Position numbers and translations under genes: made by a program. 37,170 nt of DNA from a virus (lineage: Duplodnaviria > Heunggongvirae > Uroviricota > Caudoviricetes). The notes beneath the pieces are model-generated. The model was not told where the DNA came from and did not search any database. It was given only the letters and a program-made list of their open reading frames with translations. The stretch lies in the IMG/VR virus record IMGVR_UViG_2585427743_000015, one strand, 5' to 3'. The first letter of the stretch is position 1; every line of letters starts with the position of its first letter. Positions 5,118-7,190 of the stretch are shown here, piece by piece.

Positions 5118-5321
5118 ATGAACAAAAAGACCTGGTTTCGCGCATACATGTGGGCGCTGGTATGCGTCCTCGTCTCTCTCATTCTGTATGCAGGACTACT
5201 CCCCCGAATGATTTCATCAGACAGCTCCTTCCTGGTATTGCTGGGAATTTTCATTGCCATGCTGTACCCGGCAGGCGTTGTTCGCCTTTTCAGTAAGTAC
5301 ATCAAGGAAATCAAACAATGA
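5118..5321 (+). CDS. Small membrane protein (two predicted TM helices)
   Basis: 67-aa ORF with two hydrophobic segments; immediately upstream of the SPFH lipoprotein gene with overlapping stop/start. Confidence 0.5.
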   Translation: MNKKTWFRAYMWALVCVLVSLILYAGLLPRMISSDSSFLVLLGIFIAMLYPAGVVRLFSKYIKEIKQ

Positions 5322-6148
5322 AGAAATTCAGACTCTTTCAGATTCTCCCGCTTTTTGCCGCCATCCTGCTGGTTGGTTGCGATCGCGTTGAGCCAGGTAA
5401 TGTGGGCATCAAAGTCAACAAACTGGGCGACGACAAAGGCGTCGGTGAAGTGGTTGGCGTTGGCCGCTACTGGACAGGCTGGAATACAGAGGTTTACATC
5501 TTCCCGACCTTCAAACAAATGAAGAGTTACGATGAGCCGTTCAACTTCCAGATGAGTGACGGCACAACCATCGGCTATCACATCGGCGTGGCCTACAAAG
5601 TTGATCCATCCAAAGTTACCACGGTGTTTCAGACCTACCGCAAAGGCGTGGACGACATTACCGACACTGACCTGCGCCAGAAGATCGCCGATGCACTCAA
5701 CCGACTGGCCAGCAAAATGACCACCGATAAGTTTATCGACGGTGGTAAGTCTGAACTGCTGGATTCAGCACTTAAAGATATTCAGGAAGAGATGACCCCC
5801 ATCGGTATTCAGGTCATGAGCCTCTCTTATGTCGGTAAACCGGAATATCCGCCAACCGTTATCGACAGCATTAACGCCAAAGTCACGGCAAACCAGAAAA
5901 CCCTGCAACGCGAACAGGAAGTCAAGCAGCGCGAAGCAGAAGCCAACATGTTGCGCGCAGAAGCTGCCGGACAGGCCGATGCCATTCGCACAAAAGCCCA
6001 GGCTGAAGCCGACGCCATTCGTTTACGCGGCGAAGCTCTGCGCCAGAATCCCGGCGTTATGGAGCTGGAAGCAATCAACAAATGGAACGGCACGCTGCCG
6101 CAATACATGACCAGTAACACCGCTGTTCCGTTCGTTCCCGTGAAGTAA
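5318..6148 (+). CDS. SPFH/Band-7 (prohibitin-like) domain lipoprotein
   Basis: 276-aa ORF; lipoprotein signal with lipobox 'LLVGC'; central domain and Ala/Glu/Arg/Gln-rich coiled coil ('QREQEVKQREAEANMLRAEAAGQADAIRTKAQAEADAIRLRGEA') typical of SPFH proteins. Confidence 0.7.
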   Translation: MKKFRLFQILPLFAAILLVGCDRVEPGNVGIKVNKLGDDKGVGEVVGVGRYWTGWNTEVYIFPTFKQMKSYDEPFNFQMSDGTTIGYHIGVAYKVDPSKVTTVFQTYRKGVDDITDTDLRQKIADALNRLASKMTTDKFIDGGKSELLDSALKDIQEEMTPIGIQVMSLSYVGKPEYPPTVIDSINAKVTANQKTLQREQEVKQREAEANMLRAEAAGQADAIRTKAQAEADAIRLRGEALRQNPGVMELEAINKWNGTLPQYMTSNTAVPFVPVK

Positions 6149-6315
6149 TGACACCCGGCCAGTGCAAACCGCTGGCCGGAGCAGTATCAGGATTTTTTAG
6201 TATGCCGTTCTCACAAAAAAACCGCTTGCCATGCCGCAATCAGTCAGGTTACATTTTCGCTGCACCTCATAAAACGGGTGCCGGGTTTCGCAGCCTGCTG
6301 ACAACCAAAGCGCAC

Positions 6316-6337
6316 AACCGCGCCAGCGGTTTTTTTG
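6316..6337 (+). terminator. Rho-independent terminator
   Basis: Hairpin AACCGC-gcca-GCGGTT followed by a run of T's. Confidence 0.5.
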
Positions 6338-6378
6338 TGCGTACTGTATTGCCACGTTTTTTTCGCGTCAGAATTATG

Positions 6379-6452
6379 GCGGGGCGTACGGGGCCGACTT
6401 CGGTCGGGCCGGGTTCTTTGGTTGCCGGTACTGCGAACCCCGTACGTCTCGC
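6379..6452 (+). other. GC-rich structured element (possible small RNA, RNA regulatory element or DNA structure)
   Basis: Outer 9-bp stem CGTACGGGG (6385-6393) / CCCCGTACG (6438-6446) enclosing hairpin CCGAC-TTCG-GTCGG and a CCGG/CCGG stem; lies in a ~370-bp noncoding gap. Confidence 0.3.
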
Positions 6453-6515
6453 CACCCACAGTTTCGCAGCTCTGGATGGTGAGTTTTCAAAACTTACAAC
6501 CAAAGAGGCCACACC

Positions 6516-6746
6516 ATGGCAAACCGCAAACAGCACCGCGCTATCGCGGAGCGTCGTCACATCCAGACTGAAATCAACCGCAGACTTTCCCGCGCATTCC
6601 GCGTCGCTAAAATCATGCACATCAATATGCTGCATGAGCGTAGCTGCGAACTTTCAAACCTCTACTCATCCGCTGTTTTCAGTTATCTGGCGGATGATCT
6701 GCGCGAGCTTCAGCAGCTCATCCAGCAGCAAAACAAACTCCATTAA
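6516..6746 (+). CDS. Hypothetical protein
   Basis: 76-aa basic ORF upstream of the replication gene. Confidence 0.4.
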   Translation: MANRKQHRAIAERRHIQTEINRRLSRAFRVAKIMHINMLHERSCELSNLYSSAVFSYLADDLRELQQLIQQQNKLH

Positions 6747-6818
6747 TTCCTGTTCCGGGCCTTTCCTGCACCTTGCGGCAGGAGGCCTTCGCACATCTGT
6801 AACAAGAGGATTGCCGCA

Positions 6819-7184
6819 ATGATTCTCGCCAACGACTTTCTTGAATACCTGCTCAACACAGAGCGTGATCTTGCCGTTCGCGTGCGTGAACGTTATGACA
6901 TGTACCTGAAATCCCTGCCTGTACCGCAGCTCGCTGACGGAAAGATTGTTATTGATGGTCGCTACATGATTGACAGCCACGAGGGAAATTACAGGCTTTA
7001 CCGCATTGAAGGTGGCACTCCGTCCGTTATTGGCATTTACCAGCGCCCATCCTCTGCAATCGTCGATGTGATTGCCGACAGCATCCGCATCACACATCGC
7101 TATGCCGACACAGAAGACACCGTGCTGGAAATTCAGCGGCTGGCTGCCGTTTGCCGTGACACCCTGAACGGTATGACGCAGTAA
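6819..7184 (+). CDS. Hypothetical protein upstream of gpA (gene B position)
   Basis: 121-aa ORF ending 7 bp before gpA start. Confidence 0.5.
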   Translation: MILANDFLEYLLNTERDLAVRVRERYDMYLKSLPVPQLADGKIVIDGRYMIDSHEGNYRLYRIEGGTPSVIGIYQRPSSAIVDVIADSIRITHRYADTEDTVLEIQRLAAVCRDTLNGMTQ

Positions 7185-7190
7185 ATCAGT

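Follow-up and report, generated by a model that had tools for sequence, protein, structure and literature searches.

The closest described relatives of the locus analysed here are the immI region of phages P1 and P7, the immunity region of the satellite phage P4 and the isrK-orf45/STnc1160-anrP locus of the prophage Gifsy-1. The P1/P7 c4 RNA and the P4 CI RNA belong to the same Rfam family (RF01695), and immI is also represented by a second model, RF03163 (c4-a1b1). In P1, the elements follow one another in the order a1, b1, C4, a2, b2 and first ORF, with a1 and b1 lying 88 and 74 nt before c4, a2 and b2 lying 4 and 33 nt after it, and the ATG of icd lying 11 nt after b2; b2 is located on the ribosome-binding site, and more genes lie beyond the small first ORF. 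The heteroimmunity of P1 and P7 corresponds to a difference in specificity (PMC12197685). In P4, the elements are arranged in the order seqA-CI-seqC-epsilon-...-alpha and, as summarised in PMC4825925, the CI RNA pairs with seqA and seqC, transcription terminates prematurely and the replication genes are off; epsilon, the helper derepression protein, is described in work cited in PMC8628076 as an anti-repressor that makes the helper phage P2's repressor inactive. In Gifsy-1, IsrK is transcribed from a promoter of its own, its terminator is leaky, and directly downstream of it come an RNA that is processed and a gene of the anti-repressor type; control of read-through beyond the leader has been shown for IsrK, and its short form acts in trans to relieve repression; Hfq binding and trans activation of the downstream gene are known for this IsrK only (PMC4825925).

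The window, that is, the whole stretch of 37,170 nucleotides analysed here (IMG/VR record IMGVR_UViG_2585427743_000015), is a P2-like prophage of E. coli of the P88-like type (Xuanwuvirus, Peduoviridae), and, apart from the repressor gene, all the features described below lie on its + strand. The gap at 6149-6515 is flanked by an SPFH-domain lipoprotein gene (5318-6148) and by a 76-aa ORF (6516-6746). With a probability of roughly 85%, it is an RNA-based immunity cassette for anti-repressor control, of the P1 immI/P4 immunity type, carried by a P88-like prophage. This reading is based on RNA family membership, fold, covariation, complementarity between loops and targets and the co-variation of that complementarity, the position of one target on a ribosome-binding site and the homology of the controlled gene. 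The cassette is a known kind of regulatory RNA switch and not a new one, both the C4 and the IsrK families being curated in Rfam; nevertheless, a literature search found no functional study of it in P88 or Xuanwuvirus, and the RefSeq and phage records that were checked label it as "ash family protein", as "hypothetical protein" or as the N-terminal part of an anti-repressor, and none of them as RNA.

The segment 5300-7300 is 100% identical to chromosomal prophages in many enterotoxigenic strains, strain TW10722 has exactly this sequence, and about a fifth of complete E. coli genomes (1162 of 5426) contain the cassette, which is about 250 nt long. The region of interest is 91% identical to that of phage P88 (Peduoviridae, genus Xuanwuvirus), and the closest phages belong to Xuanwuvirus and have structural genes of the P2 type, including capsid and terminase. 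Other Xuanwuvirus phages are 92-96% identical to the window, with alignments that begin only at 6212, and therefore the SPFH gene and the hairpin that follows it are a separate cargo, the conserved module starting at about 6212. This hairpin (6155-6179), which immediately follows the SPFH gene's stop codon, has a 10-bp stem, a 5-nt loop and a folding energy of -20.3 kcal/mol, lower than that of shuffled sequences (z = -3.69). The same stem is present in P88, which also carries the SPFH gene, and the hairpin is part of the cargo gene and not of the RNA cassette. The sequence-only reading had described three structures in the gap, all of which are present, with folding beyond chance for 6155-6179 and 6379-6452, and had counted two terminators among them. 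One of these, at 6316-6337, is indeed terminator-like, with a stem followed by seven U residues. The other is the hairpin at 6155-6179, which is real and stable but is no canonical intrinsic terminator: the closest U-run begins 14 nt past its stem, at 6193, and the terminator scan returned no entry for it.

The central element of the gap is a C4/CI-type antisense RNA at 6372-6459, with a predicted mature RNA extending from 6378 to about 6456. It matches RF01695 over the full length of the model (positions 1-87 of 87) with 87.1 bits against a threshold of 45 (E 4.8e-16), a score higher than those of P1 c4 (68.8 bits) and P4 CI RNA (74.9 bits) on the same model. A closing stem of 16-17 bp, formed by 6377 or 6378 to 6393 with 6438 to 6453 or 6454, encloses a UUCG hairpin (6394-6407), a second hairpin with a 12-nt loop (6408-6429) and, after it, a single-stranded junction of 8 nt (6430-6437). 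The minimum free energy structure (-49.3 kcal/mol) coincides with the family structure and accounts for 53% of the ensemble; its z-score is -4.22, and equally good folds appeared in 0 of 200 shuffles. A three-way junction with a UUCG hairpin at 6379-6452 had been proposed from the letters alone, and it folds as described. Among the functions then considered for it, a small RNA is borne out by the two Rfam families found above threshold (RF01695 and RF01394) in the covariance-model search that had been suggested as a check. A processing or antitermination element came close, since RNAs of the C4 type in P1 and P4 are excised from a longer transcript and control translation and termination in the operon downstream (for P4, as summarised in PMC4825925). 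The structure was read correctly, and what escaped that reading were the flanking repeats, two short sequences complementary to the loops, which explain the element.

Covariation had also been put forward as a check, and it supports the fold. When viral contigs were scanned for exact matches to a pattern of the conserved C4 core, 120 stretches were obtained; 76 of the pattern matches in the loci examined folded with the closing stem and gave 48 distinct loop/junction combinations, 45 of which were used. In an alignment of 46 variants that includes the window, P88 and P4, 93.9% of the cells are paired and 16 of 27 pairs have changed on both sides, a level of pairing attained in 0 of 500 shuffles and lowered to 50% or less when the partner strand was slid. 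Moreover, G-U pairs are common in the stems (27, 21 and 45 of the 46 sequences at three pairs), and the structure therefore exists only on the + strand, as RNA. At the ends of the element, U6377 occupies position -1 and G6378, at position +1, pairs with C6453, which is followed by A6454, C6455 and C6456; the CC at the 3' end is conserved in at least 90% of the 46-variant alignment. These ends resemble the acceptor end of a tRNA, and by analogy an RNA of about 77-79 nt would be released by RNase P.

Upstream of C4, a leader RNA of the IsrK type with three hairpins, the third of which forms an intrinsic terminator, spans 6262-6337. It matches RF01394 (isrK) at 6262-6336 with 65.9 bits against a threshold of 50, over model positions 1-77 of 77, and is the equivalent of P4 seqA and P1 a1b1; the seqA region of P4 scores 60.8 bits on the isrK model and P1 scores 51.0 bits on the c4-a1b1 model, on which the window stays below the gathering score (19.6 against 46.7 bits, at 6249-6301, overlapping the isrK match). 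An isrK element lies directly upstream of a C4/CI-type RNA in the window, in P88, in P4 and in six further loci. The leader is preceded by a sigma-70 promoter-like site at 6226-6255 (TTGCCA, an 18-nt spacer and TACATT), returned by the promoter scan, from which transcripts would begin at about 6262, where the isrK match has its first base. It ends in the terminator-like element at 6316-6337, returned by the terminator scan, with a stem at 6316-6331 (CCGC/GCGG core) and a run of seven U residues at 6330-6336. Both the promoter and the terminator are pattern matches, and neither varies, the two promoter hexamers included, among nine divergent module copies. Another promoter-like site, at 6349-6377, was considered as a promoter for C4 and rejected because its start would fall within the closing stem and its -35 hexamer is variable among relatives. 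A by-eye search for a LexA box near either promoter found only a half-site, TACTGTAT at 6340-6347.

The two single-stranded parts of C4 have complements on both sides of the element. The b' recognition sequence, UCUUUGGUUG, occupies 6415-6424 in the 12-nt loop of the second hairpin and is complementary to 6302-6310 and 6497-6506, and the a' recognition sequence, CUGCGAA, occupies 6431-6437 in the single-stranded junction and is complementary to 6287-6293 and 6463-6469. In the leader, the a1 target (UUCGCAG, 6287-6293) is exposed in the loop of the second hairpin and the b1 target (CAACCAAAG, 6302-6310) is single-stranded just ahead of the terminator. Downstream, the a2 target (UUCGCAG, 6463-6469) follows C4 immediately and the b2 target (CAACCAAAGA, 6497-6506) overlaps the Shine-Dalgarno sequence AAGAGG (6503-6508) of the ORF whose ATG lies at 6516. 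Beyond b' and its targets, CTTTGGTTG and its complement are absent from the rest of the window. In the 45 C4 variants, complementarity of at least 7 nt with the cognate loop or junction sequence is seen at a1 in 44, at b1 in 29, at a2 in 42 and at b2 in 38, against 6-10% for non-cognate pairings of loops and flanks (6% for a2), and the offsets of the a and b targets relative to C4 are fixed within each phage type. When the duplex energy of a' or b' alone was computed against the whole window, the targets were not singled out, and each complementary stretch is only 7-10 nt long, both of which count against the model; the evidence rests on the paired sites, their fixed spacing and their co-variation. 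A pseudoknot-free cofold of C4 with the leader or IsrK-like RNA predicted no intermolecular pairs, a result that is neutral and counts neither way, since loop-loop contacts are pseudoknots beyond the reach of the method.

Across nine copies of the module, the a and b patches change in concert, and 46 of 86 columns vary within the six a/b windows, compared with 46 of 214 outside them. In P88, b' is CUGUAGUUG with CAACUACAG as b1 and b2, and a' is GUGGAAA with UUUCCAC as a1 and a2, while one further contig (L054) combines b of the window type with a of the P88 type. The variation in a and b has the pattern that would be expected of immunity specificities, as between P1 and P7 (PMC12197685). In the sample examined, no C4 variant of the P4 type shared both its a and its b specificity with variants of the Xuanwuvirus type. 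The same module occurs beside unrelated primary repressors, and a/b specificities are reshuffled among relatives.

The predicted controlled gene is the 76-aa ORF at 6516-6746, a homologue of P4 epsilon. On the Pfam model PF25738 (Derepression) it scores 29.5 bits, just above the threshold of 27, compared with 170 bits for P4 epsilon itself, and in BLASTP it shares 29% identity with P4 epsilon over 66 aa (E 1e-8). Its substitutions show the third-position excess of a coding sequence, 42 of 77 compared with 22 and 22 at the other two positions. It is followed by a 121-aa ORF (6819-7184), which matches phrog_3237, a PHROG of unknown function, and has no significant similarity to P4 orf151, and by a gene for a P2-type replication endonuclease gpA of 940 aa (7191-10013; Pfam Phage_GPA, E 8.7e-130). 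Both (6819-10013) probably belong to the same transcription unit and could depend on the RNA switch. No co-variation of the epsilon-like protein with the repressor of its own prophage, encoded in the window at 2051-2455 on the minus strand, was found, modules 100% identical to one another being placed beside unrelated repressors, and the epsilon-like protein thus may not act on the repressor of its own prophage.

The arrangement of the locus is that of P1 immI in several respects, with the same RNA family and the same order of a1, b1, C4, a2, b2 and first ORF. The distances, too, are nearly those annotated in the P1 GenBank record: in the window, the predicted mature 5' end (6378) is preceded by a1 at 91 nt and by b1 at 76 nt, the predicted 3' end (about 6456) is followed by a2 at 7 nt and by b2 at 41 nt, and the ATG comes 10 nt after b2; as in P1, b2 is located on the ribosome-binding site and additional genes come after the small first ORF. 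The relatives of the window also differ in specificity, as P1 and P7 do. Unlike in P1, the controlled protein is unrelated, the 76-aa ORF showing no similarity to P1 Icd in BLASTP, and no homologue of Ant1/2 follows in the window. Moreover, the leader of the window has its own intrinsic terminator and matches the isrK model instead of c4-a1b1, no C1-type operator is evident at the promoter of the window, and the element as a whole is a P2-like integrating phage, unlike a plasmid prophage of the P1 type.

The likeness to P4 extends to the leader and to the controlled gene. The CI RNA and seqA of P4 match the same two Rfam models as the RNAs of the window, and the order of elements is the same, with an epsilon homologue after the RNAs and gpA as the replication gene at the end of the operon. 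Unlike the satellite, the window has a P2-type gpA and structural genes in place of alpha, sid, delta and psu. Furthermore, the distance from a1 to the C4 closing stem is 90 nt compared with 120 nt in copies of the P4 type, and P4 has about 200 nt with small ORFs between seqC and epsilon, whereas in the window b2 lies directly on the ribosome-binding site of the epsilon-like gene. As in Gifsy-1, an IsrK-type RNA with its own promoter and a terminator lies upstream of a C4-type RNA and an anti-repressor-type gene (PMC4825925). However, the downstream gene of Gifsy-1 is AnrP, an anti-repressor of another type, the output is the antiterminator AntQ and the prophage is lambdoid; in addition, the model for Gifsy-1 treats the C4 equivalent as orf45, with translation coupled to anrP, whereas the corresponding frame in the window lacks a coding signature. 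In other phages, the same pair of RNAs precedes anti-repressor genes of the Rha or Bro type. These IsrK-C4 cassettes, in lambdoid and Stx prophages, have the same two RNAs, the same arrangement of targets and about 70% identity to the window over 6250-6510, and their loops and targets likewise co-vary; their controlled genes encode 180-300 aa, and in many records the annotated ORF also takes in the RNA upstream of the gene.

The scheme that follows is proposed by homology with P1 c4, P4 CI and Gifsy-1 IsrK/STnc1160 (PMC4825925, PMC3632133, PMC12197685); in it, transcription, processing, repression and polarity are inferred, and so is what the epsilon-like protein acts on. The promoter at 6226-6255 would direct synthesis of the IsrK/seqA-type leader with a1 and b1, and most transcripts would stop at its intrinsic terminator. 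Transcripts that read through, and probably also those of the early operon coming from upstream, would carry C4 (6372-6459), from which it could be excised by RNase P, by analogy with P1 c4 and P4 CI. The folded C4 would expose b' in the hairpin loop and a' in the junction, and these could pair with b2 and a2; since b2 lies on the Shine-Dalgarno sequence, ribosome loading on the epsilon-like gene would be blocked. If the epsilon-like gene is not translated, there would probably be less transcription into the 121-aa gene and gene A, through polarity as in P1 and P4. In the leader, a1 and b1 would compete for the loops of C4 in cis and in trans and in this way set the level of free C4 and the passage beyond the leader terminator. 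The exact a and b sequences would define the immunity specificity, which would differ among related phages. C4 may act through translational repression, termination or both, between which the sequence does not discriminate.

An attenuator or leader that acts exclusively in cis, in which alternative folds of one long transcript set the read-through into the epsilon-like gene and gpA and no free C4 is made, seems unlikely as a full account of the locus. The intrinsic terminator inside the leader agrees with it, and so does the minimum free energy structure of the read-through RNA (6262-6530), in which a1 and b1 pair with a' and b' in cis and the 3' strand of the C4 stem pairs with 6475-6484, a fold in which the middle of IsrK contacts the downstream RNA as in the inactive "structure A" of isrK-orf45 (PMC4825925). 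The alternative helix with the 3' strand of C4 recurs, cognate runs of at least 7 nt being present in 36 of 45 variants, but the non-cognate controls for this helix are also high (43%) and it is thus weakly supported. Moreover, conservation and covariation are by far the strongest in the C4 fold, whose tRNA-like ends are typical of an excised RNA. A switch working purely in cis would have no need of the second set of targets, which stand at fixed distances on either side of C4, and the homologues P1 c4, P4 CI and Gifsy-1 STnc1160 are RNAs that are processed and stable (PMC4825925, PMC12197685). Both modes of action are compatible, and the cis fold is included in the explanation preferred here, the RNA-based immunity cassette.

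It is highly improbable that the frame at 6148-6822 encodes an "Ash family" protein or transcriptional regulator and that the RNA structures are incidental. This frame is open for 224 codons, matches PHROGs annotated as transcriptional regulators and scores 30.1 bits on PF10554 (Phage_ASH; threshold 26) over aa 35-126, which correspond to nt 6250-6525; "ash family protein" is the RefSeq label at this locus in many genomes, and the frame is open from a1 to the end of C4 in 29 of 45 variants. However, the region is not spanned by any open frame in 10 of 45 variants, PGAP flags the 224-aa ORF as incomplete or as a pseudogene, and the frame crosses the real epsilon-like gene in another phase. Its variable columns (25 of 89, 29 of 89 and 23 of 88) show no third-position excess, whereas the neighbouring epsilon-like ORF has the coding pattern in the same phages, and the covariation of the stems and their G-U pairs are as expected for RNA. 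In P4, the obsolete "cI gene product" ORF has its PF10554 match exactly at the CI RNA, while the true epsilon ORF matches only PF25738, and the immunity factor of P4 is the CI RNA, which arises by processing of an untranslated transcript (as summarised in PMC4825925). We conclude that the Ash family (PF10554) is a translated RNA gene, its match covering both RNA genes exactly. The sequence-only reading was right to find no convincing ORF in this frame, which lacks codon periodicity, but not for the reason that it gave, low complexity. Its suggestion of a DNA structure fails, because the G-U pairs are possible only on the + strand and the stems covary as RNA. An element acting as DNA (a cruciform, an origin of replication or a site of recombination, for instance) is scarcely credible, and so is a GC-rich group of inverted repeats brought together by chance, even though such repeats do adjoin the replication gene A: the other strand would have A-C mismatches at the frequent G-U pairs, the UUCG tetraloop stabilises RNA and not DNA (according to a remark in PMC2864571), two covariance models score above their curated thresholds, none of the 200 shuffles folded equally well, and a DNA hairpin would have no need of the observed co-variation between loops and distant single-stranded targets.

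Read as an RNA-based immunity cassette, the locus has a practical value in the correction of its annotation. Moreover, the RNA-controlled epsilon module of their satellite P4 is present also in the P88 group of P2-like phages, directly ahead of the replication gene, which bears on the exchange of regulatory parts between helper phages and satellites and on the reasons for which P88-like prophages can be induced chemically or are active spontaneously (PMC6456863). It is possible, if rather doubtful, that in these phages the P4-style RNA cassette gates an epsilon-type anti-repressor together with gene A and forms a second, RNA-based layer of immunity independent of C/Cox. If this were true, the epsilon-like protein could serve to attack other resident prophages of the P2-like type, or could open a way to induction in a family whose prototype, P2, is non-inducible, and the cassette could cross-talk with the CI RNAs of P4 satellites.

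The region of the window that encodes the IsrK-type leader RNA (6262-6337, + strand) and the C4 antisense RNA (6372-6459, + strand) is matched, when translated, by the Pfam family PF10554 ("Ash protein family"; 6250-6525) and also by PHROGs 6928, 995 and 821 ("transcriptional regulator/repressor"), and in many E. coli genomes RefSeq labels the cassette region as a pseudo "ash family protein". In P4 (locus L003, 8330-8521), the PF10554 match corresponds to the obsolete cI ORF lying over the CI RNA and not to epsilon. PF10554 served as the "epsilon" marker in a survey of P4-like satellites (PMC8628076); thus, since the match in P4 covers the cI ORF and CI RNA, this marker probably detects the RNA gene adjoining epsilon.

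In an alternative fold of the region 6448-6484, predicted for unprocessed transcripts, the closing stem of C4 could contribute its 3' strand (CUCGCCACCC) to a helix with GGAUGGUGAG (6475-6484); a2 (6463-6469), one of the C4 targets, would then lie in the loop of the resulting hairpin. Such a helix is kept, with a changed sequence, in divergent variants, including those of the comparison loci L015, L040, L055, L108 and L111, and is found in 80% of cognate combinations; the non-cognate controls are also high, at 43%. A second sigma-70-like match (TTGCCA, 17 nt, AATTAT; 6349-6377) is located between the leader terminator and C4. Transcription from this site would begin inside the closing stem of C4, and the -35 hexamer of the match varies among relatives; the site is probably not functional.

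Immediately before the cassette (window 5318-6200) lies a gene for an SPFH/Band-7 lipoprotein, followed at its 3' end by a strong hairpin (6155-6179). Of the listed phage records, P88 alone covers this gene region, and the match of the remaining Xuanwuvirus phages to the window begins at 6212; the gene and its hairpin look like a cargo ("moron") insertion. On the other side, the epsilon-like ORF is separated from the 121-aa ORF by a 72-nt spacer (6747-6818), in which an imperfect inverted repeat rich in GC (GGCCUUUCCUGC...GCAGGAGGCC), lacking a U-run, can be made out by eye.

Three clustered tRNA genes, tRNA-Leu(taa), tRNA-Cys(gca) and tRNA-Gly(gcc), lie close to the window's right end (36168-36470, - strand) and may represent host flank or the prophage attachment region. 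The C4 RNA of L004, a viral contig used for comparison, has a HEARO RNA (RF02033, 106 bits; 7332-7573) some 5 kb away, which is unrelated to the window cassette.

In BLASTP, the primary repressor of the window, a 134-aa HTH protein (2051-2455, - strand), resembles neither the C-type repressor (106 aa) of the comparison locus L001 (2502-2822, - strand) nor the 93-aa C of P88 (1170-1451, - strand). A 100%-identical module of C4 and the epsilon-like ORF is found in prophages with unrelated primary repressors; hence the RNA cassette assorts independently of the immC region.
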